This document shows positions 13,248 through 55,644 of a stretch of 64,000 bases of DNA, one piece after another. Source of the stretch: an uncultured Bacilli bacterium. Its GTDB lineage: Bacteria > Bacillota_I > Bacilli_A > RF39 > UBA660. The stretch spans positions 15,489 through 79,488 of the forward strand of contig CAKOMD010000003.1 of NCBI GenBank assembly GCA_934096555.1, given 5' to 3'. A model generated the notes under the pieces. The model made no database searches and had not been told where the DNA came from. It worked only from the letters and a program-made list of their open reading frames with translations. Every line of letters begins with the position of its first letter. Within the stretch, counting starts at the first letter, position 1. Made by a program: the position numbers and the translations under genes.

Positions 13248-13678
13248 TATCTTTCTAAATCCTTAATCATATCATTTCTTCTAATGTATTTGCTTACATT
13301 AGTAAATGGAGTATTAATAAACTTATCAACAATATCCAACATTAAATCTTCATCTAATTCTTCACTCATTGCTATACAATTAGCATCATTGTGTGCTTTA
13401 CATAAAATAGCCTCACTTTCATTTGAAACTTTAGCACAATATACACCTTTCATTTTATTTAAAGTAATACTCATACCTATACCAGTACCACATATAGCAA
13501 TTCCTAAATCAACTTCACCATTTTGGATAGCAGTTCCTAATTTTTTAGCATAAACTGGAAAATCAACACTATCCTCAGTATCAGTTCCATAATCAATAAC
13601 ATCATATTTATATAAACTATCTTTCAAAAATTTTTTTGCTTTATAACCACGATGATCACTCGCAAGTCCTATTGTCAT
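13247..13678 (-). CDS. rpiB: ribose-5-phosphate isomerase B (RpiB/LacAB family)
   Basis: 143 aa with the ICGTGIGMS active-site block. Confidence 0.9.
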   Translation of the reverse strand: MTIGLASDHRGYKAKKFLKDSLYKYDVIDYGTDTEDSVDFPVYAKKLGTAIQNGEVDLGIAICGTGIGMSITLNKMKGVYCAKVSNESEAILCKAHNDANCIAMSEELDEDLMLDIVDKFINTPFTNVSKYIRRNDMIKDLER

Positions 13679-13777
13679 ATTATCACCATTCCTTCAATCT
13701 AATTATACTAAAAAAATCATTCGAGTTAAATATAATTTATTTTTTTTGACATATATTTTACACAAAAGAAAAAGACA

Positions 13778-14770
13778 TTATTGTCTTTCCAACATATATA
13801 AGTTATCTAAAAGTATTCCTGTACCTTCAGCCACACAAGTAAGTGGAGATTCTGCAATAAATACAGGTACTTTAAGTTCTTGACTTAGTACTTGAGCAAA
13901 TCCATCTACTAAAGCACCACCACCAGTAAGTACAATTCCTTTATCAATAATATCAGCAGATAACTCAGGTGGAGTTTGTTCTAGTATACCCTTAACAGCA
14001 TGAATAATAATGTAGACACTTTCTCTTAAAGCTTCTTCTACCTCATCACTTGTCAAAGTAATCGTGTGAGGAAGTCCAGTAACTAAATCTCTACCTCTAA
14101 CTTCCATTTTTTCATTTCTAGAACCAGGAAAAACAGTACCAATAGTTATTTTTATATCTTCTGCTGTCCTTTCTCCTACCAATAATTTATATTTATCTTT
14201 AATATATTTTACAATATCATTATCAAAAGCATTACCAGCAATTCTAATTGAAGCACTATTAACAATTCCACCCAAAGATAGTATAGCAATATCAGTAGTA
14301 CCACCACCAATATCTATTACCATATTACCACTTGGTTTAGATATATCCATACCAGCTCCAATTGCGGCAACTTTAGGTTCTTCTTCTAGAAAAACTTTCT
14401 TAGCTCCGGTTCTTTCAGCAGCCTCTTTAATAGCATTTTTTTCAACCTGAGTAATATTAGAAGGACAACATATCAATATTCTAGGTCTAGAAAAAAAACT
14501 CTTACCATTTACTTTTTTTATAAAGTAATTAAGCATAACTTCTGTAGTGTCATAATCAGCAATTACACCATCTTTCATAGGCTTAATGGCTTTTACTTTG
14601 CCAGGAGTTCTACCAAGCATCTCATGAGCTTCACTTCCCACAGCTAAAGGTCTTTTCGTGTCAGCATCTATAGCAACAACAGATGGCTCATTTAATACAA
14701 TACCTTGTCCCTTAATATATATAAGTACATTAGCAGTTCCTAAGTCAATTCCAATATCTTTGTTAAACAT
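13778..14770 (-). CDS. mbl: MreB/Mbl actin-like rod-shape protein
   Basis: 330 aa with DLGTANV and GGGTTD motifs. It lies directly downstream of spoIIID, as mbl does in Bacillus. Confidence 0.9.
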   Translation of the reverse strand: MFNKDIGIDLGTANVLIYIKGQGIVLNEPSVVAIDADTKRPLAVGSEAHEMLGRTPGKVKAIKPMKDGVIADYDTTEVMLNYFIKKVNGKSFFSRPRILICCPSNITQVEKNAIKEAAERTGAKKVFLEEEPKVAAIGAGMDISKPSGNMVIDIGGGTTDIAILSLGGIVNSASIRIAGNAFDNDIVKYIKDKYKLLVGERTAEDIKITIGTVFPGSRNEKMEVRGRDLVTGLPHTITLTSDEVEEALRESVYIIIHAVKGILEQTPPELSADIIDKGIVLTGGGALVDGFAQVLSQELKVPVFIAESPLTCVAEGTGILLDNLYMLERQ

Positions 14771-14794
14771 AAAATCACCATCCTCATTTACATT

Positions 14795-15082
14795 TTACCA
14801 CAATTTAACATTTTTTAATAGAGAAGATTCCCTTTTTTTGTCTAAAAACTTATCTTTTGTAGCCTGTCCTCCTCTAATATGCTTAATATAAGTATGATAT
14901 TCCAAAACACTTGACACTTTTTTATATAAGGTACTGTCAAGTAACACTAATTTTTCTCTCATGTCCTTATGTACAGTACTCTTAGATACACCAAATATAA
15001 AAGATACTTCCCTAATTGTTTTATTAGTATCAATAATATAATTAGCTTCTTCTATTACTCTAGAAACAACTTTTTTATTCAT
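14795..15082 (-). CDS. spoIIID: sporulation transcriptional regulator SpoIIID
   Basis: From MNKKVVSRVIEEANYII..., with the KSTVHKDM HTH and the HIRGGQATK basic region. The ORF-track N-terminal extension was trimmed. Confidence 0.9.
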   Translation of the reverse strand: MNKKVVSRVIEEANYIIDTNKTIREVSFIFGVSKSTVHKDMREKLVLLDSTLYKKVSSVLEYHTYIKHIRGGQATKDKFLDKKRESSLLKNVKLW

Positions 15083-20741: not shown

Positions 20742-20954
20742 ATAAAAAAATAAGGCTAACCAAAGGACGAAAAATATTCCGCGGTACCACCTTATTTTAT
20801 AATATATACACTCATTAAGTTATAACGTAACAACCGTTTATACCTATTAGATATAACTGCTCCAGAACCATTTATAATAGCTTTTCTTATCTATTTTCAC
20901 CAAACATAGACTCTCTATAAATATTACTATTACTCTTTCCTTCTTCGCTTTACA
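20742..20954 (-). promoter_or_regulatory. T-box leader (tRNA-sensing riboswitch) upstream of dut-metG
   Basis: The minus strand carries AGAGAG followed by a GGTGAAA distal-loop element in stem I. The canonical T-box core AAGGTGGTACCGCG sits at 20780-20793, followed by a terminator and T-run ending at about 20744. Confidence 0.85.
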
Positions 20955-31919: not shown

Positions 31920-32342
31920 TCATTTTTTTCGTTTATTTGCAAAAAAATCAGATAAAATTTTTGAACATTCTGTATCATCAACAAAATATAAGTTAACAAG
32001 CTTGTTTATCCTCCTAATATCATACATTTGTTCGCTATTATTTTTTGCCCCAAAATAAACATTTTTAATTCTAGATTCAACAATTGCACCCATACACATC
32101 ATGCAGGGCTCCAAAGTGACATAAAGATCACATTCATCCAAACGCCAAGAATTGAGTTTTCCACAGGCTATATCAATTGCCACCATTTCAGCATGCCTAA
32201 TTGCACAATTTTTGCTTTCTTTTTCATTGTGTCCACAGGCTATAACCTTATTTTTGTATACAATAACGCATCCTACAGGAATTTCGTCCAAATCAAAAGC
32301 CTTTTTTGCTTCAATAAATGCCATATCAAGATATTTTTTCAT
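31920..32342 (-). CDS. tadA: tRNA-specific adenosine deaminase
   Basis: Starts at MKKYLDMAFIEAKKA. The HAEM and PCMMC zinc motifs are present. The ORF-track extension was trimmed. Confidence 0.9.
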   Translation of the reverse strand: MKKYLDMAFIEAKKAFDLDEIPVGCVIVYKNKVIACGHNEKESKNCAIRHAEMVAIDIACGKLNSWRLDECDLYVTLEPCMMCMGAIVESRIKNVYFGAKNNSEQMYDIRRINKLVNLYFVDDTECSKILSDFFANKRKK

Positions 32343-32429
32343 TATAAGCTCCTTTTCTATCAACAAGTATAACAAAAAATAGTAGCTAGAACCAGTTATT
32401 TTAATTATACCCATCAACAAGTAAAAAAA

Positions 32430-32445
32430 CGTTCCACGTGAAACA
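32430..32445. other. parS site 1 of 8
   Basis: cGTTCCACGTGAAACA (15/16). No adjacent DnaA-box-like 9-mer. Confidence 0.7.
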
Positions 32446-32518
32446 TAACATGATGCTATTAAAATTCATTTATATTAACTAAATATTAACAAGATAATTA
32501 TAAGTTTGTGGATATACA

Positions 32519-32534
32519 AGTTTCACGTGAAACA
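32519..32534. other. parS site 2 of 8
   Basis: aGTTTCACGTGAAACA (15/16). TGTGGATAT at 32507-32515 lies 3 nt upstream. Confidence 0.75.
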
Positions 32535-32668
32535 TAGCTGATTCAAAATTGAATAAAGTACCATTTTAAAGCAAATAACGCAAAATTAAATGAAATTGAA
32601 AATAAAACACACAGAAAATGTTCTTTTTTAGATAGTATACTTAAAATATAAAGACTGTGGAAAAATCA

Positions 32669-32684
32669 TGTTCCACGTGAAACA
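32669..32684. other. parS site 3 of 8
   Basis: TGTTCCACGTGAAACA (16/16). TGTGGAAAA at 32656-32664 lies 4 nt upstream. Confidence 0.85.
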
Positions 32685-32852
32685 TTTGTAATTAATAGTA
32701 TAAGATAAAAAATTTAGTAAAATTTATCATGATTTTCTAAAAATAGTTGTATAAATAAATTTATTTGAATTGAATAATAAAAAAATTCATTATAATTGAT
32801 TATATATTTAATATATTAAAAACATTTTAGTGATAAAATATGTTGATATACA

Positions 32853-32868
32853 AGTTTCACGTGAAACA
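32853..32868. other. parS site 4 of 8
   Basis: aGTTTCACGTGAAACA (15/16). TGTTGATAT at 32841-32849 lies 3 nt upstream. Confidence 0.75.
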
Positions 32869-33022
32869 TACACTTTTTTATTATGTAATTACGTCTAATA
32901 AATATAAATACATCATATATATGATTATAAAAATTACAAAAATTTAATATCATTTATTGAAGCAGTTAATTAAAATATATTTAATATCAATAATTAAAAT
33001 AATTTTAGTTGTGGAAAACTCA

Positions 33023-33038
33023 TGTTTCATGTGAAACA
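33023..33038. other. parS site 5 of 8
   Basis: TGTTTCAtGTGAAACA (15/16). TGTGGAAAA at 33010-33018 lies 4 nt upstream. Confidence 0.7.
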
Positions 33039-33185
33039 TAGCTAATTCAATAATAGATAAAATATCATTTTTAGCCGAATACATGCAAAATTAAGTGAAA
33101 TTTTTAAAAAATATAATGAAAATGTTCTTTTTTAAGATAATGTACTGAAAATATAAAAGTTTAATAATTTGTTGTGGAAAACTTA

Positions 33186-33201
33186 CGTTCCACATGAAAC
33201 T
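33186..33201. other. parS site 6 of 8 (degenerate)
   Basis: cGTTCCACaTGAAACt (13/16). TGTGGAAAA at 33173-33181 lies 4 nt upstream. Confidence 0.45.
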
Positions 33202-33345
33202 TTATATTTACAAAGAAAAAATACACAAATATAAAACAGCTTAAGATTAATATGTAGTTTAAATATTTAATTTTTAAATATTTATAATAAAAATCTAATT
33301 ATTATATTATAATTATTACTTTCATGATTACATGTGGAAAACTCA

Positions 33346-33361
33346 TGTTTCACGTGAAACA
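33346..33361. other. parS site 7 of 8
   Basis: TGTTTCACGTGAAACA, a perfect 16-bp palindrome. TGTGGAAAA at 33333-33341 lies 4 nt upstream. Confidence 0.85.
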
Positions 33362-33551
33362 TTATAATATAATTAAAAATAAAATAGAAATTAAATATCA
33401 TTAAGTTAATTACAACATTATTGTTTAATCTTATATAACTAATCAACGATATAGTTTTAATTATTATATATAATAAATCTGTTCACAATTTTGATATATA
33501 ATAATTAAAAACTATAGTCTAATTCAAATATAAAAAAATTGTGGAAACTCA

Positions 33552-33567
33552 TGTTCCACGTGAAACA
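33552..33567. other. parS site 8 of 8
   Basis: TGTTCCACGTGAAACA (16/16). TGTGGAAAC at 33540-33548 lies 3 nt upstream. Confidence 0.85.
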
Positions 33568-33576
33568 TAAAAAAAA

Positions 33577-33649
33577 GATACACACATTAATAAAATGTTA
33601 AAGCTGCTGGCTTCCGCCCCTGACTTGATTCCATCATTAATGTTGTATC
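33577..33649 (-). ncRNA. ffs: small (4.5S-type) signal recognition particle RNA
   Basis: The minus strand forms one long hairpin: GAUACAACAUUAAUGAUGGAAUCAA-GUCAGG-GGC-GGAA-GCC-AGCAGC-UUUAACAUUUUAUUAAUGUGUGUAUC. The GUCAGG/AGCAGC loops and the GGAA tetraloop are the conserved SRP domain IV. It is followed by a U-run, and a TATAGT -10 element lies upstream. Confidence 0.8.
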
Positions 33650-33728
33650 AACAACACTATATCACATTTTAACAAAAAAAACAAGTATATATCAATCGCG
33701 AACATTTGTATGCTTAAAGTATACAATA

Positions 33729-33744
33729 TATTTCCCGGGAAATA
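33729..33744. other. Noc-binding site (NBS) palindrome
   Basis: TATTTCCCGGGAAATA, identical to the published Bacillus NBS core ATTTCCCGGGAAAT. It lies just downstream of the gyrA stop. Confidence 0.75.
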
Positions 33745-33764: not shown

Positions 33765-36368
33765 TTACTCACTCTTTATTTCATTAATTTCCAAAGTTTG
33801 TTCATCATTGTCTTTATCGACAACTGCAGTTCCACTAACTTTCGTATCATCCTTAAGATTAATAAGTCTAACTCCCTGAGTAACTCTACTCATTCTAGAA
33901 ATCTTATCGACTGCTAATCTAATAATCATACCTGTATCAGTAATAATTATCAAATCCTTATCATCTGTAACAGTTTTAAATGAAACAATAGCACCATTCT
34001 TTTCGGTGATATTAATAGTTTTAACACCTTTACCGCCTCTATTTGTTATTCTATATTCATCAATAGGAGTCTTTTTACCATATCCATATTCACTAATAAC
34101 AAGAACATCTTCATTAGGTTTAATGACTTCCATTCCAACAAGAAAACCACCATCTAAATTAATACCTCTAACTCCAGAAGCACCTCTTCCCATAACTCTA
34201 ATAGAATTTTCATTAAATCTTACCATTCTACCATTAGAAGAAGCCATTAAAATATCATTATCTCCGGTAGTACCCTTAACAGAAATAAGTTCATCATCGT
34301 CTCTTAAAGTGATAAATCTCTTACCATTAGTTCTAATATTATAGAATTCGGCCAAATCAGTTCTCTTAATTAAACCACTTTTAGTGGCAAATACCAAATA
34401 CTTATCTTCACTATCACTAGATCCGTTAAGTAAAGCCGTAACATACTCACCCTGTTCTAAGTTAAGTAGATTGATAATTGGTAATCCCTTTGATTGTCTA
34501 CTATATTCAGGAATTTTGTAGCCTTTAACCCTGTATACTTTGCCCATATTAGTAAAGAATAAAACATAATCATGTGTAGAACAATTAAGAATTTGTTCAA
34601 CAAAGTCTTCTTCGTTAGTAGACATACCTTTTATACCAACTCCACCTCTATGCTGTGTCTTATAAGTAGAAGCAGATAATCTCTTAATATACCCCTTCTT
34701 AGTTAAAGTAATAACAACTTTATCTTCAGGAATTAAGCTTTCGTCCTCAATATACTCAACAGCGGTCATATCAATATGTGTTCTTCTTTCATCAGCATAT
34801 CTACTCTTAATTTCTAATAATTCTTTTTTAATAATACTAAGAACTTTTTCTTCAGAAGCAAGAATAGACTTTAATTCTTCGATTTCAATAAGCAAATCAG
34901 CAAGTTCTGCTTCAATTTTATCTCTTTCCATTCCGGTTAAACGACGTAATTTTAATTCTAATATAGCATCAGTTTGAATTTCAGATAAAGCAAATCGTTC
35001 CATTAATTTTTTCTTTGCTTCTATATCACTTTCGGCAGTTTTTATTATTTTGATAACCTCATCAATATTATCTTGAGCTATTTTATAACCCTCTAAAATA
35101 TGAACTCTTCTCTCGTCTTTATCTAAATCAAATTTAGTTCTTCTAATAATCACTTCTTTTTGATGATCAATATATTTAGAAATAATATCCTTTAATCCCA
35201 AGGTCTTAGGAACGCCCTGATCAAGCATCAAAAATATAATTCCATAGGAAATTTGAAAATTAGTATGCTTATATAAATTATTAAGTACAACCTGAGGATT
35301 AGCATCCCTTTTCAAAGTAATAGTGATTTTAACACCATCTTTTAAATCAGTATGATAATCAGATATACCATCAATAACTTTATCTCTAACAAGTTCAGCA
35401 ACCTTATTTTTTAGTTCCATAGTATTTATACCATAAGGAACTTCAGTAATAACAATAGTATTATGATTATTATGTTCTTCAATCTCTGCTCTACTACGAA
35501 TAGTAATAGATCCTCTACCAGTTTCATAGGCCTTCTTTATACCGGAATTGCCAAGTATAATTCCACCTGTAGGAAAATCAGGCCCCTTTATGTATTCCAT
35601 AAGACCTAAAGTATCTATATCATGATTATCGATATATGCTACGCAGCCATCAATTACCTCACCTAAATTATGTGGTGGAATATTAGTAGCCATACCAACA
35701 GCTATACCCATTGAGCCATTTACTAATATATTTGGAAATCTACTTGGTAATACTCTAGGTTCTTTACTAGTTTCATCAAAATTATCATCCATATCAACAG
35801 TATTTTTATTAATATCTCTAATAAGTTCAAGCGAAATTCTAGATAATCTTGCTTCAGTATAACGATATGCTGCAGCACCATCACCTTCAATATTACCAAA
35901 ATTACCATGACCATCAACTAACATATATCTTTCATTAAAATCTTGTGCTAAACGAACCATAGCCTCATATATAGAACTGTCTCCATGAGGATGGTAATGT
36001 CCCATAACATAACCAACAGTAGTTGCAGATTTTTTATGAGGCTTATCTGGAGTATTACCTTCTTCGTACATAGACCATAAAATTCTCCTGTGAACAGGTT
36101 TTAATCCATCTCTAAGGTCAGGAATAGCTCTTGAAGTAATAACACTCATAGAATAGTCAATAAATGAATCTTTAACCTCTGAAACTATGTCATTTGCAGT
36201 ACTGCTATCTTTTTCATGAAAATCACCATTAAATTTATCAGTTTCTTCTATATCTGAATTTTCAACAGCAATATCTTCATTTTTTTCACCTTGATTATTG
36301 TCATTCATCGCTCTATTAACAAGTTCATTAATATCGCTGCTTTCTTTTTTAATATTTTCATCTTCCAT
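33765..36368 (-). CDS. gyrA: DNA gyrase subunit A
   Basis: 867 aa with AIPDLRDGLKPVHRR and the active-site block AAAYRYTEAR, plus C-terminal beta-pinwheel repeats. An acidic N-terminal extension is also present. Confidence 0.97.
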   Translation of the reverse strand: MEDENIKKESSDINELVNRAMNDNNQGEKNEDIAVENSDIEETDKFNGDFHEKDSSTANDIVSEVKDSFIDYSMSVITSRAIPDLRDGLKPVHRRILWSMYEEGNTPDKPHKKSATTVGYVMGHYHPHGDSSIYEAMVRLAQDFNERYMLVDGHGNFGNIEGDGAAAYRYTEARLSRISLELIRDINKNTVDMDDNFDETSKEPRVLPSRFPNILVNGSMGIAVGMATNIPPHNLGEVIDGCVAYIDNHDIDTLGLMEYIKGPDFPTGGIILGNSGIKKAYETGRGSITIRSRAEIEEHNNHNTIVITEVPYGINTMELKNKVAELVRDKVIDGISDYHTDLKDGVKITITLKRDANPQVVLNNLYKHTNFQISYGIIFLMLDQGVPKTLGLKDIISKYIDHQKEVIIRRTKFDLDKDERRVHILEGYKIAQDNIDEVIKIIKTAESDIEAKKKLMERFALSEIQTDAILELKLRRLTGMERDKIEAELADLLIEIEELKSILASEEKVLSIIKKELLEIKSRYADERRTHIDMTAVEYIEDESLIPEDKVVITLTKKGYIKRLSASTYKTQHRGGVGIKGMSTNEEDFVEQILNCSTHDYVLFFTNMGKVYRVKGYKIPEYSRQSKGLPIINLLNLEQGEYVTALLNGSSDSEDKYLVFATKSGLIKRTDLAEFYNIRTNGKRFITLRDDDELISVKGTTGDNDILMASSNGRMVRFNENSIRVMGRGASGVRGINLDGGFLVGMEVIKPNEDVLVISEYGYGKKTPIDEYRITNRGGKGVKTINITEKNGAIVSFKTVTDDKDLIIITDTGMIIRLAVDKISRMSRVTQGVRLINLKDDTKVSGTAVVDKDNDEQTLEINEIKSE

Positions 36369-38324: not shown

Positions 38325-38348
38325 AAATTATTTCCCGGGAAATAATTT
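38325..38348. other. Noc-binding site (NBS), extended 24-bp palindrome
   Basis: AAATTATTTCCCGGGAAATAATTT overlaps the recF stop codon, 23 nt upstream of the gyrB start. It is followed by an extra ATTTCCC half-site ending at 38351. Confidence 0.75.
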
Positions 38349-39565: not shown

Positions 39566-40027
39566 TTACATTTCTGTGTATTGCAAACTATTAAGTAATT
39601 TTTCTATTTTGATACACTTAGTAATTTGATTATCAATAGTAGTATACGGTGCCCTAATTTTTAATACTTTTCCACCTTTAAAATAAATTTCGGTATATTT
39701 TTTTTCAGCTTCTACATATCGTTCAATATTATTATAAGAAAGCCAAATACATTTATTAGATTCTGGTGAAGCTGTAGGAAATAATATTATTTTATTATAT
39801 TCAGAAAGTATAATAGGAGTTTTAATGTAATAATTAAAATGATCTATTACAAATTGTCTTTGAATATTATAAGAATGTCCATAGCAAAAACAACATTTCT
39901 TTAAAAACTTCAACGAATTACCTTTAAAAGTCAATCTTTTTGCCTTTTCTATAACCAAAACATTATTTTTCTCTATACTATCCTGAGTAAAACATAAAAT
40001 GTCTTCATTAATAATATAGTCTCGCAT
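39566..40027 (-). CDS. ComK-family protein
   Basis: Starts at MRDYIINEDIL. It aligns to Bacillus ComK blocks C.F.G.SY..R, K.PI, I.LFPT.S....C.W.S, T.I.F..GK and SY....Q. Confidence 0.7.
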   Translation of the reverse strand: MRDYIINEDILCFTQDSIEKNNVLVIEKAKRLTFKGNSLKFLKKCCFCYGHSYNIQRQFVIDHFNYYIKTPIILSEYNKIILFPTASPESNKCIWLSYNNIERYVEAEKKYTEIYFKGGKVLKIRAPYTTIDNQITKCIKIEKLLNSLQYTEM

Positions 40028-40271
40028 AAATTTTCCCCCTTCCCACATATAAAATATGTGAAAAATATTAAAGCATAAAGATATGTCGAATTTTGTAGAA
40101 AAATGTCGATAAAAGTAGTTTTTTTATTTTATTTGCACTATAGACTGCATTTTTAAGATCTATAACACTATCTTAAAACACATTTTACCAAAAAATAATA
40201 ACGTCATTCATATTTTTAAATGTAAGATATTTATAAAACATTTGATTTAGACTTCAATTCTATATTTTTAC

Positions 40272-40295
40272 TTATCCACATTAAATGTGGATAAA
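40272..40295. promoter_or_regulatory. inverted pair of perfect DnaA boxes
   Basis: TTATCCACA (40272-40280), a 6 nt gap, then TGTGGATAA (40287-40295). The pair lies immediately after the dnaN terminator. Confidence 0.75.
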
Positions 40296-41461: not shown

Positions 41462-41480
41462 TTTTATCATCCTCTTTCTT

Positions 41481-41596
41481 TTATTATATAATTATTATTA
41501 TTATACTGTTGATATTGTTGATATCTTTATTTTTTTCTTGTTTTATATACTTTTCTTTTTCCACAGAACCTGTGGATATTTCTGTTTTTATCCACT
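41481..41596. other. oriC part (dnaA-dnaN spacer): DnaA boxes plus AT-rich/TAA-repeat candidate unwinding element
   Basis: The boxes are TGTTGATAT x2 (41507-41524), TTTTCCACA (41557-41565), TGTGGATAT (41571-41579) and TTATCCACT (41588-41596). ATT/TAA trinucleotide repeats at 41491-41504 abut the tandem boxes. Confidence 0.7.
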
Positions 41597-42956: not shown

Positions 42957-43108
42957 TAGCAAAACCTCCTGACTAAGTATTCCATTAACATTATTATATA
43001 ACAAATTTTAAATTTGTCTAGTACAAAATTTTAATAAACATGTAAATTAACAAGTTATAAACATCTTTTCAACAATATAATATCATATAAAATATGTGTT
43101 TTAAATGG

Positions 43109-43187
43109 TTATCCACAAATTTTGTCAAATTTTGTTATTAACAGGTGTTACTTTACTTTTCCACAGCCCTGTTGATATTGTTGATAC
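43109..43187. promoter_or_regulatory. DnaA-box cluster upstream of dnaA (oriC/dnaA promoter region)
   Basis: TTATCCACA (43109-43117), TTTTCCACA (43157-43165), TGTTGATAT (43170-43178) and TGTTGATAC (43179-43187). Confidence 0.75.
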
Positions 43188-43219: not shown

Positions 43220-44980
43220 TTAATTAGTTTTCCACTGTATCATCCATTTATCAAATACATGGGCGTTTGAACTCTGTGGTTCTGGATTAGGAAGTTCCAT
43301 TTTTACAATCATAGGTATCTTCATCATTTTACCAAAAGCCACACAAGTACCTGCTTGAAGTGATTTTTGCTTTTCTAAAACATCACTACTAATGTTTGGT
43401 ACCATCTTTTCAATATATTCTAAGTCAGCAGGATGATTAATCTTAAATATCAAGAAATTACTACATTGCGATAATACAGTTTCTGATAATTCAGTAGGTC
43501 TTTGTGTTACTAAATCCATCATAACGCCAAACTTTCTACCTTCCTTAGCTATTCTTTCAAATATATTATATCCAAGTATATCATTATCAATATCTTTCTG
43601 AACATATCTATGTGCTTCTTCAAGCATGATATTAATAGGCATAGAGCCCCTCGAAGGAAGACTCTTCATAAAATTAAAGAATATTCTAGAATAAATTTTA
43701 ACTAAAGCCTTAGCAAATCTATCATCAATACCTTCGAGTACAAAATTAATAATTTGTGCTCTCTTGTTACCATTCACTAGTATTAAGTCAGATATAAATT
43801 CATTAATAGTACAAAACTTTTCTACTTCAAAATACCTTCTCAAAGAACTATTAGCAATACTATGTAATTTAACTTTTAAAGCAGTACCTTCTGCATAAGA
43901 CTTCTCATTAAGAAGAACTCCTTCAGATATTAAAGTAAAATTAAGTGCCTCCTCTAAATCATCAATAGTAAAATATACAGGTGTATAATCTTCTTTCCAT
44001 TTAGTATCATTATCAATAAATTTCTTAATATATTCTGTAATAAGAACTCTCTCAGCAAATTGTCCTTGACTATCTATTTCAAAGCATTTTCTAAATTGTC
44101 TCGTATAACCAACACCAGGAACATCAACGTCCAAGTTAAGTTCTTTAGTACTACAACTAGTTAAAATAGAAAATATTTGGTCTCTTATTCTAGCAGATAC
44201 TTGATTAGAATAAAGAACAGATGTAATAGCGGTAGCAATTAAGTGATTCTTATACTTATTAGATTCTTCATCATTTCTTGCAAATAAAGAAACATAATTA
44301 AGCATTTTTTCAATAACCATAATTTGACTATAAGTACTAACATCAAGTAAATTAGCATAATCATCTACTGACATAAGCCATAAAGGTAATTTTAAAATAC
44401 TATTATTACTATCTGTATCAGTACTAAACATTTTATAATTAAAATTAAAATTATAACTATTAATAGATTTAAAAGCATTATCATATTCATCAGTATTATT
44501 AAATATAAATATAACACTATTAAATGGAATATAGTTAGGCATAGTAAATAAATTTTGTACTAGTCTAGCTACACCATATGTTTTACCACTACCAGTATTA
44601 CCAAATATAGCGGTATGATTACTCCACATATCATCAATATTAATTTTAACAGGGCTATTATTATATAAAGGAGATAGTCCAAGCATCATTGCCGTACTAT
44701 CATTGTAGCCAGTAAGTTCTGCTAGTTCATTGCCATTAATTATTCTTATTTTAGCATTAATACTAGGTTTTCTAATAATACCATCAAAAAATTTATCATT
44801 AATAAACTCACCTAAGAAAGTAATTTTAGCCTCATTATTAATTATTTCTTCAATTTCTCCTAGTATTTTTTTATTATTTTCCTCAAAAATAACATTTAAA
44901 TTAAGTAAGTCATCATTAATTACATTATCTATTTTAACGATAGCATAATTTTTACTAATTGCGGTAATTTCTTTAAACAT
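43220..44980 (-). CDS. HerA/FtsK-like (DUF87-type) hexameric ATPase
   Basis: 586 aa with an N-terminal HAS-barrel-like segment, Walker A AIFGNTGSGKTYG, Walker B MLEEAHRY and the VTQRPTELSETVLSQCSNFLIFK block typical of HerA. Confidence 0.7.
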   Translation of the reverse strand: MFKEITAISKNYAIVKIDNVINDDLLNLNVIFEENNKKILGEIEEIINNEAKITFLGEFINDKFFDGIIRKPSINAKIRIINGNELAELTGYNDSTAMMLGLSPLYNNSPVKINIDDMWSNHTAIFGNTGSGKTYGVARLVQNLFTMPNYIPFNSVIFIFNNTDEYDNAFKSINSYNFNFNYKMFSTDTDSNNSILKLPLWLMSVDDYANLLDVSTYSQIMVIEKMLNYVSLFARNDEESNKYKNHLIATAITSVLYSNQVSARIRDQIFSILTSCSTKELNLDVDVPGVGYTRQFRKCFEIDSQGQFAERVLITEYIKKFIDNDTKWKEDYTPVYFTIDDLEEALNFTLISEGVLLNEKSYAEGTALKVKLHSIANSSLRRYFEVEKFCTINEFISDLILVNGNKRAQIINFVLEGIDDRFAKALVKIYSRIFFNFMKSLPSRGSMPINIMLEEAHRYVQKDIDNDILGYNIFERIAKEGRKFGVMMDLVTQRPTELSETVLSQCSNFLIFKINHPADLEYIEKMVPNISSDVLEKQKSLQAGTCVAFGKMMKIPMIVKMELPNPEPQSSNAHVFDKWMIQWKTN

Positions 44981-48901: not shown

Positions 48902-48917
48902 TATTTCCCGGGAAATA
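48902..48917. other. Noc-binding site (NBS) palindrome
   Basis: TATTTCCCGGGAAATA in the divergent region between the GT2 gene and tmcAL. Confidence 0.75.
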
Positions 48918-51450: not shown

Positions 51451-51486
51451 AAATTATTTCCCAAATTATTTCCCGGGAAATAATTT
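51451..51486. other. Noc-binding site (NBS) 24-bp palindrome preceded by an extra half-site
   Basis: AAATTATTTCCC (51451-51462) is followed by AAATTATTTCCCGGGAAATAATTT (51463-51486). The site lies between the polA stop and the mutM RBS, and its 24-mer is identical to the one at 38325-38348. Confidence 0.75.
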
Positions 51487-54240: not shown

Positions 54241-55575
54241 TTACTTTATATTAAATAATTTAATATCATTTTTTTCAAGTTTAGGTAATTCTAAAGATTC
54301 TTTTTTCATATTCCAATTAATTTCATAATCAGGAAGAACCTTAGTTTTAATAGGCATCATTCTAGGAACCAAAATAACTTCATTAAAGAAATCTATAGTC
54401 TTTAGTTCTTCAATTGAAATAAGAGGACCTTTATTAGTATTACCACATAACTTACTTACTTCTTCTAGAGTATATAAATCATTTGCTAATAGATAAATAG
54501 TATTATCAAAGCACATTCTAATTAATTCAGTATTTTTACTACCATAAACATTATTTAAATTAGTAAAGTTTTTAATAAAAGCAGTAATTTTAATATTAAT
54601 TCCTCTAGCATAATTAAACTTACTATAAAAATCTACTATAGGTAATAAACTATCAAATCCATCAATAACTAAGTTAAATCTTTCATTTTTGTTTCCATAT
54701 AATTGAATACTACAAAAGATTTGATCCAATAATATAGTAATTAAATTATTAACATAACTTGAAATACCACTTATCACTATAATTGCAGTTTTTTCATTAC
54801 CAATATTAGTCATATCAAAGTCTGTTTTAGACATTGCATTAGATAATCTTTCTTTAGTAACAAATTTTTTAATTCTTTGATTAAATGTTACTAAAATACC
54901 AGCCTTTGTTTCAGGAGCAGTACCAAGTGTATTAAATAAGTATTGGTATGTACTAGAGTTTCTATTTATTGTATCAATAATATTTTCTTTGCTATTATTT
55001 ATTTGCTCAGACAAAGAAACTACACTATTTAAATTAATTTCTTCTTCTTTAGCCTTATCAAATAAGTATAGAACAAGACCAACAAAATATTCTATCGCAG
55101 TATTTTCCCAGAATATATCAGAATTATCATTACTATCATGTAATAAATAATATCCAATATTCTCTAACATTTCAATAGCCTTATCCATATTATTATTTTT
55201 ATATAATTCATAAGGAAAAGTAAGTACATTATAATACTTTCCTTTTTCTAGGTTAGCATAGTCTAATACTATAATATTATAATTATTATTTTTTAATTCA
55301 CCACCTATCTCATCTAAAATTTCTCCCTTTACATCATTAATAAATAATGATTCTCCAGCCTTAATAGCAAGTCTAATTTGTGGTAACATAACACCTTGTG
55401 TTTTACCACTACCAGGTGCACCAATAATAATAGTATGAGAATTATCATCTTTAATATATAATTTATTTTTATCATATCCCATTGGTATTCCTGATTTTTT
55501 GATATCTGAATTAATATCTACTTCTTTGAGAAATTTTAACATTTCCTCTTTAGTAGCCCATCTTGCATAATTCAT
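54241..55575 (-). CDS. soluble VirD4/TraG/TraD-like (type IV coupling protein family) ATPase, orphan
   Basis: Starts at MNYARWATKEEM after an AAGGAGA RBS. Walker A is IIIGAPGSGKTQG. The layout is T4CP-like, but no N-terminal TM helices are present. Confidence 0.6.
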   Translation of the reverse strand: MNYARWATKEEMLKFLKEVDINSDIKKSGIPMGYDKNKLYIKDDNSHTIIIGAPGSGKTQGVMLPQIRLAIKAGESLFINDVKGEILDEIGGELKNNNYNIIVLDYANLEKGKYYNVLTFPYELYKNNNMDKAIEMLENIGYYLLHDSNDNSDIFWENTAIEYFVGLVLYLFDKAKEEEINLNSVVSLSEQINNSKENIIDTINRNSSTYQYLFNTLGTAPETKAGILVTFNQRIKKFVTKERLSNAMSKTDFDMTNIGNEKTAIIVISGISSYVNNLITILLDQIFCSIQLYGNKNERFNLVIDGFDSLLPIVDFYSKFNYARGINIKITAFIKNFTNLNNVYGSKNTELIRMCFDNTIYLLANDLYTLEEVSKLCGNTNKGPLISIEELKTIDFFNEVILVPRMMPIKTKVLPDYEINWNMKKESLELPKLEKNDIKLFNIK

Positions 55576-55644
55576 TATATCATCTCCTTTCAAAAGCATT
55601 ATATTACCAAAAAACATAAAAAAGTTAAACAAAAATGGCTTTTT

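Follow-up and report, generated by a model that had tools for sequence, protein, structure and literature searches.

A dense parS array with adjacent DnaA-box-like motifs between gyrA and tadA in an uncultured Bacilli bacterium, and parS arrays at the same place in its relatives

The parS array in the window and in related loci

We analysed a 64 kb stretch of genomic DNA from an uncultured Bacilli bacterium (the window, to which all coordinates without a prefix refer). The subject is the interval between gyrA and tadA, which carries an array of sites matching parS, the universal ParB site. On the minus strand of the window the order is dnaA, dnaN, a ComK-like gene, recF, gyrB, gyrA, ffs (the signal recognition particle, SRP, RNA gene), the array, tadA, dnaX, ybaB and recR. 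Both strands were scanned with the parS 16-mer TGTTNCACGTGAAACA at up to 3 mismatches, and 100 dinucleotide-preserving shuffles served as the control. Eight parS-like 16-mers were found, all within 32430-33567: three at 16/16, four at 15/16 and one at 13/16, exactly the scores given in an earlier note on this DNA. The features of the interval are listed below; the parS sites carry no strand.

31920..32420, minus strand: tadA (tRNA adenosine deaminase), opening the tadA-dnaX-ybaB-recR block downstream of the array
32430..32445, no strand: parS-1, CGTTCCACGTGAAACA, 15/16, nearest tadA and the sole site without an adjacent DnaA-box-like motif
32519..32534, no strand: parS-2, AGTTTCACGTGAAACA, 15/16
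32669..32684, no strand: parS-3, TGTTCCACGTGAAACA, 16/16
32853..32868, no strand: parS-4, AGTTTCACGTGAAACA, 15/16
33023..33038, no strand: parS-5, TGTTTCATGTGAAACA, 15/16
33186..33201, no strand: parS-6, CGTTCCACATGAAACT, 13/16, degenerate, with 3 mismatches
33346..33361, no strand: parS-7, TGTTTCACGTGAAACA, 16/16, a perfect palindrome
33552..33567, no strand: parS-8, TGTTCCACGTGAAACA, 16/16, overlapping the last (3') 6 nt of the SRP RNA
33562..33659, minus strand: ffs, SRP RNA gene (Rfam, 58 bits)
33765..36368, minus strand: gyrA, the upstream boundary of the interval and the anchor kept in all 80 related loci

Counted by strand, the 64 kb contained 15 parS matches against 1.09 expected, and 0 of the 100 shuffles reached the observed count. 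Beyond the eight sites no further match (≤3 mismatches) occurs across the window, and parS is absent from ∼20 kb of same-species flanking contig (∼10 kb on each side of the window). The start-to-start spacings are 89, 150, 184, 170, 163, 160 and 206 bp, in agreement with the 89-206 bp reported before. The stretch from tadA to the SRP RNA was likewise confirmed to lack any open reading frame (ORF) of ≥60 aa, the longest ones being 54, 45 and 44 aa. The size of 1.3 kb assigned to it earlier fits the distance from tadA to the gyrA stop (1.34 kb); the gene-free stretch from tadA to ffs measures 1.14 kb.

The array is a diverged one, with an internal duplication of ∼504 bp at 71% identity. It is not a regular tandem repeat: Tandem Repeats Finder reported none, and the spacing varies from 89 to 206 bp. 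Two other identities of the stretch were rejected as well. An RNA element is not indicated, the SRP RNA being the only Rfam match even at E values up to 1, and neither is a promoter array, since promoter-like matches (23, vs. 17.7 ± 3.9 in shuffles) did not clearly exceed the shuffled level. Copy number differs within the species, with 8 parS in the window (32430-33567) and 7 in the same-species contig L001 (GyrA 99% identical; L001:12802-13858). The L001 counterpart of the degenerate parS-6 is closer to the consensus, with 2 mismatches.

To compare relatives we used 80 loci retrieved by GyrA from uncultured gut Bacilli, with GyrA identities from 99% down to 65%; their records are labelled Tenericutes, Clostridium sp. 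CAG:302/417/594, Bacilli, Erysipelotrichaceae, Candidatus Faecimonas, Onthousia and Coprovivens. Sites were counted at ≤1 mismatch, and a locus was taken as readable if it had ≥1.5 kb downstream of gyrA (60 loci). All 60 readable loci have at least two parS sites within 3 kb after gyrA, with a median of 4 and a maximum of 9. In total, 310 sites lie in this post-gyrA interval and a single one elsewhere in 1.48 Mb of comparison sequence. The six loci without any parS site all end ≤430 bp from gyrA. The order dnaA-dnaN-comK-like-recF-gyrB-gyrA-[array]-tadA-dnaX is kept clade-wide; ffs falls within the gyrA-tadA interval in all relatives checked, placed before, inside or after the array. What is conserved across all sites is only an 18-bp core, A-TGTT(T/C)CACGTG(A/G)AACA-T, and the flanks diverge.

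Site, core and placement are thus conserved across the clade, which argues for selection on the sites and their position and against a dispersed generic repeat. The comparison of the gyrA-tadA interval that the earlier note had proposed returned an array at the same position in every readable locus. Judged from sequence, this conserved placement strongly indicates a functional, dedicated centromere-like locus.

Some relatives carry strictly periodic arrays, with a period of 38 bp repeated 7 times in L020, 75 bp x5 in L009, 118 bp x7.3 in L025 and 136 bp x4.2 in L078. Twenty contigs, about a quarter, break off within the array, shortly ahead of it or right after gyrA (among them L009, L016, L018, L047, L050, L063, L066, L069-L071, L074-L076 and L080), and the array repeat is probably the cause of these assembly breaks. 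In L021, three perfect parS with a 48-bp period (L021:14346-14457) lie within the dnaX coding sequence (13264-14943), where they are translated as NVPRET x3. Of the relatives' sites, 59/311 are extended into perfect palindromes by ≥6 bp more per side, with arms that vary by site, where 2.5 were expected. Examples of such long-palindrome parS among L005-L080 are L022:12854, L006:12829 and L019:13248; they are rare in the genus of the window. Selection favouring hairpin or cruciform formation could account for the extension, and so could a template-switch process that corrects palindromes.

DnaA-box-like motifs and Noc-binding sites around the parS sites

Six of the window parS sites have a DnaA-box-like 9-mer (pattern WWWTCMACA) on their tadA side, at a gap of 3-4 nt and in a single orientation: TTTTCCACA four times, ATATCCACA once and ATATCAACA once. 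A degenerate box stands beside parS-8. These motifs, and the two box clusters that flank dnaA, are:

32507..32515, minus strand: DnaA-box-like 9-mer ATATCCACA, 3 nt from parS-2
32656..32664, minus strand: DnaA-box-like 9-mer TTTTCCACA, 4 nt from parS-3
32841..32849, minus strand: DnaA-box-like 9-mer ATATCAACA, 3 nt from parS-4, a variant found twice in the dnaA-dnaN spacer
33010..33018, minus strand: DnaA-box-like 9-mer TTTTCCACA, 4 nt from parS-5
33173..33181, minus strand: DnaA-box-like 9-mer TTTTCCACA, 4 nt from parS-6
33333..33341, minus strand: DnaA-box-like 9-mer TTTTCCACA, 4 nt from parS-7
33540..33548, minus strand: degenerate box GTTTCCACA, with 2 mismatches to TTATCCACA, 3 nt from parS-8
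41471..41594, no strand: oriC-type DnaA-box cluster in the dnaA-dnaN spacer, with AGTGGATAA, ATATCCACA, TGTGGAAAA, ATATCAACA and ATATCAACA, then TAA repeats and an AT-rich stretch
43066..43187, no strand: DnaA-box cluster upstream of dnaA, with GTATCAACA, ATATCAACA, TGTGGAAAA and TGTGGATAA

The array thus holds several TTATNCACA-like boxes clustered in non-coding DNA, six motifs in 1.1 kb. The pattern occurs at 4.8 per kb in the array, all on one strand, vs. 0.6 per kb overall, and its only clusters outside the array are those around dnaA. The box variants of the array are the same ones that make up the organism's own dnaA-flanking, oriC-type clusters. Within the genus of the window (four species with GyrA ≥90% identical), the motif is found 2-4 nt from parS and always on the tadA side at 22/28 sites, the other flank having diverged. 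A strict box (≤1 mismatch) accompanies 15/27 sites against 0.2 expected, and the parS nearest tadA is without the motif in all four species. Two other geometries occur outside the genus, TGTGRATAA abutting parS and TTATCMACA-A-parS.

A second type of palindrome, the Noc-binding site (NBS; consensus ATTTCCCGGGAAAT), also occurs at the locus. The window has one perfect 16-mer, at the gyrA-proximal edge of the array:

33729..33744, no strand: perfect NBS, TATTTCCCGGGAAATA, between ffs and gyrA, overlapping the T-run of a gyrA terminator-like hairpin

Three perfect 14-mers bring the density in the window to about one NBS per 16 kb. They lie at or near gene boundaries, at 38330-38343 (recF/gyrB), 48903-48916 (glycosyltransferase/tmcAL-like) and 51468-51481 (fpg/polA). 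Perfect or ≤2-mismatch NBS were detected in 72/81 sequences and are concentrated in the gyrA-tadA interval, with 104 there and 53 elsewhere across the clade. In several relatives NBS and parS alternate 1:1 in tandem units: L018 and L025 (117-118 bp), L047 (66 bp), L050 (75 bp), and L078 and L080 (136 bp). The composite array of L025 consists of 7.3 units of 118 bp at 87% identity. L063 and L074 have NBS only in their assembled part. Array sites are either parS or NBS, with zero intermediates, which argues for two separate readers. The earlier note had overlooked both the paired DnaA-box-like motifs and the NBS, and its account of the interval was incomplete in this respect.

A ParB-family gene was found in three relatives (L044:1200-2675, L059:1002-2654 and L087:10001-11215), between rsmG and dnaA. 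The encoded proteins of 491-550 aa have ParB_N and HTH_ParB domains and a Noc-like recognition helix (GVSQSTIANKLRLLN...SERHARAL). The specificity residues are Q, K, N, R in 120/120 retrieved homologues (P0001-P0120; 400-650 aa). The best NCBIfam model was nucleoid_noc at 290 bits (cut-off 315), and the generic ParB model gave 189 bits. The clade proteins carry a low-complexity insert of 200-350 aa ahead of a conserved C-terminal domain. They are without the ∼25 N-terminal residues that bear the membrane helix in B. subtilis Noc: the PNRFQPR motif, which we take to begin at about residue 40 in B. subtilis Noc, starts at residue 14-21. There is no room for an N-terminal extension, because rsmG ends 24-48 nt upstream of the gene.

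It was reported previously that the Noc-type residue set QKKR (Q173, K179, K184, R201) confers NBS binding, a lysine at 179 or 184 being sufficient (Jalal et al., PMC7383237), and that R173 is invariant among parS binders while Q173 variants are NBS-specific (PMC7383237). The Noc-type proteins of the clade are therefore not expected to bind parS, since the Q, K, N, R pattern does not (PMC7383237).

A probable ParB-loading region near the presumed origin and its alternatives

We consider it likely that the gyrA-tadA interval is a dedicated, origin-proximal ParB-loading region of centromere-like type, which is also a DnaA-box cluster. In sister lineages the best-supported reading is that the interval would also be a Noc-like loading zone, because NBS are interleaved with parS there. 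ParB nucleates at clustered parS near oriC, forms clamps that depend on cytidine triphosphate (CTP), spreads and recruits SMC (PMC7083940, PMC7022226), and Noc likewise loads, clamps and spreads at NBS (PMC5540599, PMC8429893). By this precedent, a canonical ParB with an arginine at the equivalent of Caulobacter R173 would be encoded elsewhere in the genome, and its dimers would bind each parS, close as CTP-dependent clamps and slide onto the flanking DNA. With eight such sites packed into 1.1 kb, local loading would be very high and a large ParB focus would form 8-9 kb from dnaA. Through this focus SMC condensin would be recruited and the origin region organised or segregated. The paired boxes would make up a second DnaA-box cluster, coupled in cis. 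DnaA positioned 2-4 nt from parS could be titrated there, or could be a one-sided roadblock to ParB clamps sliding toward tadA. In sister lineages the same locus would also load the divergent Noc-like ParB paralogue.

Several observations weigh against this reading; they concern the protein that would read the parS sites, the nature of the flanking motif and the position of the origin. As to the protein, Pfam scans found neither ParB nor ParA among the 47 ORFs of the window, and neither was found in contig extensions of 10 kb on each side, so that no par genes were seen within ∼30 kb of the array. A tblastn search of the window and the 80 loci (within 10 kb of gyrA) was run with approximate B. 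subtilis Spo0J and Soj sequences. It gave three matches only, all Noc-type, and no parS-type ParB; the approximate Soj query gave no ParA in the window or the 80 loci. In L087, with the layout rpmH-rnpA-yidC-jag-mnmE-mnmG-rsmG-noc, nothing ParA- or ParB-like follows noc. Every ParB-family protein seen in the clade is Noc-type (120/120 from the homologue search). The check for a ParB homologue that the earlier note had called for was thus answered in part, with no parS-type ParB in the window, flanks or 80 loci and a Noc-type ParB paralogue in relatives.

The search was extended to metagenomes by turning the ParB-specific motif GKSR..(I/V)xNxLRLL into a degenerate nucleotide pattern built from AT-rich codons. 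Among the matches listed, the ParBs came from marine and other Bacillota, with MnmG at most 50% identical to that of the clade. Candidates with the synteny nrdDG-pssA-psd-parA-parB proved to be Thomasclavelia/Coprobacillaceae. Cluster-representative candidates were Amedibacillus, proteins from metagenome-assembled genomes and an organism with 49% GC and the canonical rsmG-noc-parA-parB order, and for none of these could a link to the clade be made. The Coprobacillaceae of the gut (Thomasclavelia and relatives) have parA-parB at a conserved, non-canonical (nrdD-nrdG)-pssA-psd-parA-parB locus and not beside rsmG-noc (L125, L108, L114, L147, L162, L193 and L210).

ParB may lie elsewhere in the genome, since less than ∼10% of any clade genome was visible to us. 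That the universal parS sequence is kept exactly throughout the clade speaks for the existence of a canonical parS reader. Orphan ParB systems without ParA occur in S. pneumoniae and S. aureus.

We regard it as unlikely that the palindromes are bound by something other than canonical ParB, either the Noc-like protein acting on parS and NBS or another factor, with a function that is not ParABS-type segregation; it might, for example, tether the origin region at the membrane or at a cell pole in division or sporulation. The ParB paralogues found in the clade are indeed Noc-type only, L087 has no soj-spo0J after noc in its canonical layout, and the alternation of NBS and parS within single repeat units in many relatives suggests joint use. 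The organism also sporulates, SpoIID, SpoIIID and SpoVT being encoded in the window. However, the small part of each genome inspected leaves room for a ParB gene elsewhere, and Coprobacillaceae keep parAB at the non-canonical pssA-psd locus. Binding of parS needs R173, and Q173 variants are NBS-specific (PMC7383237). The strict division of sites into parS or NBS is what two separate readers predict, and the 16-mer agrees in full with the universal ParB site.

More tentatively, the interval might be a single multi-factor origin hub in which ParB, a Noc-like clamp and, in some genera with boxes 0-4 nt from parS, DnaA are wired in cis in fixed register. The Noc-like clamp may then be one without a membrane helix and with a long disordered insert. 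In an extreme form of such a hub there may be no canonical ParB, with parS read by a new factor.

For the ParB-loading region with paired boxes, the second difficulty lies in the motif itself. Outside the genus the association of boxes with parS is weak (12/279 sites vs. 2.2 expected), so that the pairing is largely a property of one genus. The commonest form of the motif is ambiguous, as TTTTCCAC is one base off the parS half-site TGTTCCAC and is able to pair with the neighbouring parS half-site as a hairpin. We rejected the motif being a mere third half-site or hairpin partner as the sole explanation, since ATATCCACA, ATATCAACA and TTATCAACA (L004) fit neither. The DnaA-box reading explains more of the data because these three fit a DnaA box and not a half-site or hairpin.

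Right behind ffs, at window 33541-33559 (minus strand), the parS-8 half-site pairs with the motif beside it in a 6-bp hairpin that leads into a T-run, and the first array unit may double as the ffs terminator. It is highly improbable, in our judgement, that the whole array consists of structural or selfish palindromes (of the repetitive extragenic palindromic, REP, or miniature inverted-repeat transposable element, MITE, kind) or of RNA hairpins such as gyrA and ffs terminators, with the likeness to parS incidental. Terminator-like hairpins can be drawn from the parS half-site and flanking motif, the one after ffs having its T-run, and the excess of extended palindromes among relatives would fit as well. 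On the other hand, the invariant part is the exact 16-18-bp parS, where a structure-only element would covary; the T-run is missing at most copies, only one copy lies outside the interval in the 1.48 Mb, and Rfam matches nothing in the stretch except the SRP RNA.

The third difficulty with a ParB-loading region near the origin is the position of the origin. In keeping with the earlier note, canonical parS sites do lie far above chance in a single non-coding interval, 8-9 kb away from dnaA and the DnaA-box clusters beside it. We judge these clusters to have the classical oriC architecture of Bacillota, in which a pair of boxes precedes DnaA-trio-like TAA repeats and AT-rich DNA for unwinding. 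Third-position GC skew, however, shows no strand switch at dnaA in the genus and is positive for minus-strand genes on both sides. Nearly all genes over ≥35 kb to the right of dnaA (including polA, polC, sigA and suf) are on the minus strand and point toward dnaA; these strand and skew observations cover window 41471-64000 and L085. Relatives have the usual divergent yidC-rnpA | dnaA arrangement, whereas the genus of the window has a HerA-like gene and then a rearranged block, and a rearrangement seems to end at the origin there. Either this rearrangement happened too recently for the skew to have settled again, or replication starts from a functional origin at another place. The earlier placement of the array 8-10 kb from oriC therefore stands with respect to dnaA and its box clusters and finds no backing in the skew; a distance of 8-9 kb from oriC is what we infer, because it rests on the DnaA-box clusters around dnaA and not on skew.

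The array itself was rejected as replication origin, having neither a strand switch nor the architecture of box pair, TAA repeats and AT-rich stretch. That it is first of all a DnaA-controlled element, a DnaA sink like datA or the DnaA-box clusters (DBC) or a true or secondary origin, with parS as an accessory, is very unlikely in our estimate. Its six or seven box-like 9-mers are the organism's own oriC variants, in one orientation and in very AT-rich DNA, the skew does not switch at dnaA, and origin-proximal box clusters restrain initiation in B. subtilis (PMC3245932). Nevertheless, the boxes are consistent in one genus only, whereas parS is at the locus in all relatives, and every box stands 2-4 nt from a parS instead of being grouped with other boxes. 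The box pair with TAA repeats and AT-rich unwinding stretch sits in the dnaA-dnaN spacer and not in the array, where the skew does not switch either.

Other features of the origin region and window were noted. A ComK-family gene (39566-40048, minus strand; Pfam ComK, E = 1e-23) lies between dnaN and recF, a position kept in nearly all relatives, and the spacer upstream of it has a perfect DnaA-box pair (40272-40294). A gene for a HerA/FtsK-like DUF87 ATPase (43220-44980, minus strand) is immediately upstream of dnaA and is common to L001-L003; in L005-L009 and L019 a gene with 63-70% identity is inserted between rnpA and dnaA. Between polA and polC, adjoining an AraC-type regulator, a TraG/VirD4-like type IV secretion coupling-protein gene (54241-55632, minus strand) may be the remnant of a conjugative element. 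An ordinary T-box leader (20760-20954, minus strand; Rfam 104.5 bits) precedes the methionyl-tRNA synthetase gene.

Relation to known systems and significance

Clusters of parS on chromosomes, some of them between genes, are already known, as are iterated plasmid centromeres, clusters of DnaA boxes, the presence of DnaA at a centromere, and the Noc-NBS system. With the chromosomal parS clusters of C. glutamicum and B. subtilis (ten sites) the array shares the 16-bp consensus, the proximity to dnaA/oriC and the multiple copies, and by analogy it would be expected to share their role in ParB nucleation and SMC loading. The sites of C. glutamicum are mostly intergenic too (PMC7083940). The contrast that the earlier note drew with scattered chromosomal parS holds for the density, which is exceptional at 8 sites in 1.1 kb vs. 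10 in 35 kb (∼25x denser than in C. glutamicum), but it was overstated, since nine of those ten parS in 35 kb are intergenic (PMC7083940). The array also differs from such clusters in that all sites of ∼105 kb of contiguous sequence are in one gene-free interval, that this interval (gyrA-tadA) is fixed syntenically across the clade, and that no cognate ParB or ParA gene turned up in the sequence searched.

In sopC of plasmid F, a 43-bp repeat that contains a SopB site occurs 12 times in tandem. Like it, the array is a compact, non-coding, multi-copy set of ParB-family sites, and the arrays of L020, L009 and L025 are strictly periodic; to this extent the likeness to a plasmid centromere put forward in the earlier note can be kept. 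It does not extend to the window, where the spacing is irregular (89-206 bp), the sites are of the chromosomal parS consensus and not plasmid-specific, and there is no adjacent par operon, the flanks being gyrA, ffs, tadA and dnaX, on the chromosome among origin-region housekeeping genes. The window array lacks two of the traits that define iteron centromeres of plasmids, a fixed period and an adjoining parAB operon on a plasmid; in sequence, position and conservation it agrees with chromosomal parS clusters.

The parS locus of Caulobacter crescentus contains DnaA boxes to which DnaA binds (Mera et al. 2014, reviewed in PMC6399470). The array would resemble that locus in having boxes within the centromere region, which would put initiator and ParB at one place. 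In contrast to Caulobacter, the box-like motifs here are paired 1:1 with parS, with a fixed 2-4 nt gap and orientation, six or seven times over, in Bacillota. Outside oriC, B. subtilis has clusters of DnaA boxes that act genetically together with Spo0J/Soj to restrain DnaA (Okumura et al. 2012, PMC3245932). The array is likewise an origin-proximal DnaA-box cluster outside oriC; in B. subtilis the clusters and parS are separate and linked in trans via Soj, whereas here they are physically interleaved and no Soj was seen. Another parallel is found in the cis elements of the secondary replicons of Deinococcus radiodurans, direct-repeat arrays which are reported to interact with DnaA and ParB proteins (PMC7671480). 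They differ in lying upstream of parAB on secondary replicons, in having origin function and in being made of non-canonical repeats.

The perfect NBS and the clade's ParB paralogue with Noc-type residues recall the Noc-NBS system of Bacillota (PMC7383237, PMC5540599, PMC8429893). In B. subtilis and S. aureus, however, NBS are scattered over the origin-proximal chromosome, whereas those of the clade are concentrated in the parS array and often alternate with parS. The clade protein is also different, having 400-650 aa with a long low-complexity insert, no membrane-helix region and a score (290 bits) just under the NCBIfam threshold of 315.

Neither parS/NBS arrays of the interleaved kind nor parS arrays that follow gyrA were found described in our literature search, and the same holds for such a parS density, clade-wide fixation at a single site and 1:1 pairing of parS with DnaA boxes. 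The array could be of use as an origin-region marker in metagenome-assembled genomes and as a source of compact parts for ParB-parS and Noc-NBS labelling systems. The box pairing and NBS alternation would amount to natural experiments in which ParB clamps, a second ParB-family clamp and the initiator meet within a few hundred bp; clamp collision, roadblocks and replication-segregation crosstalk are currently studied only with engineered constructs. If the tentative hub were real, two interleaved ParB-family CTP clamps and DnaA would couple origin organisation, division and initiation control, and would do so without the ParA/Soj relay of B. subtilis. If functional, this would be the most compact natural chromosomal centromere-like array that we are aware of, at ∼7 parS per kb, and it would narrow the gap between scattered chromosomal parS and iterated plasmid centromeres, in a clade that has never been cultured.

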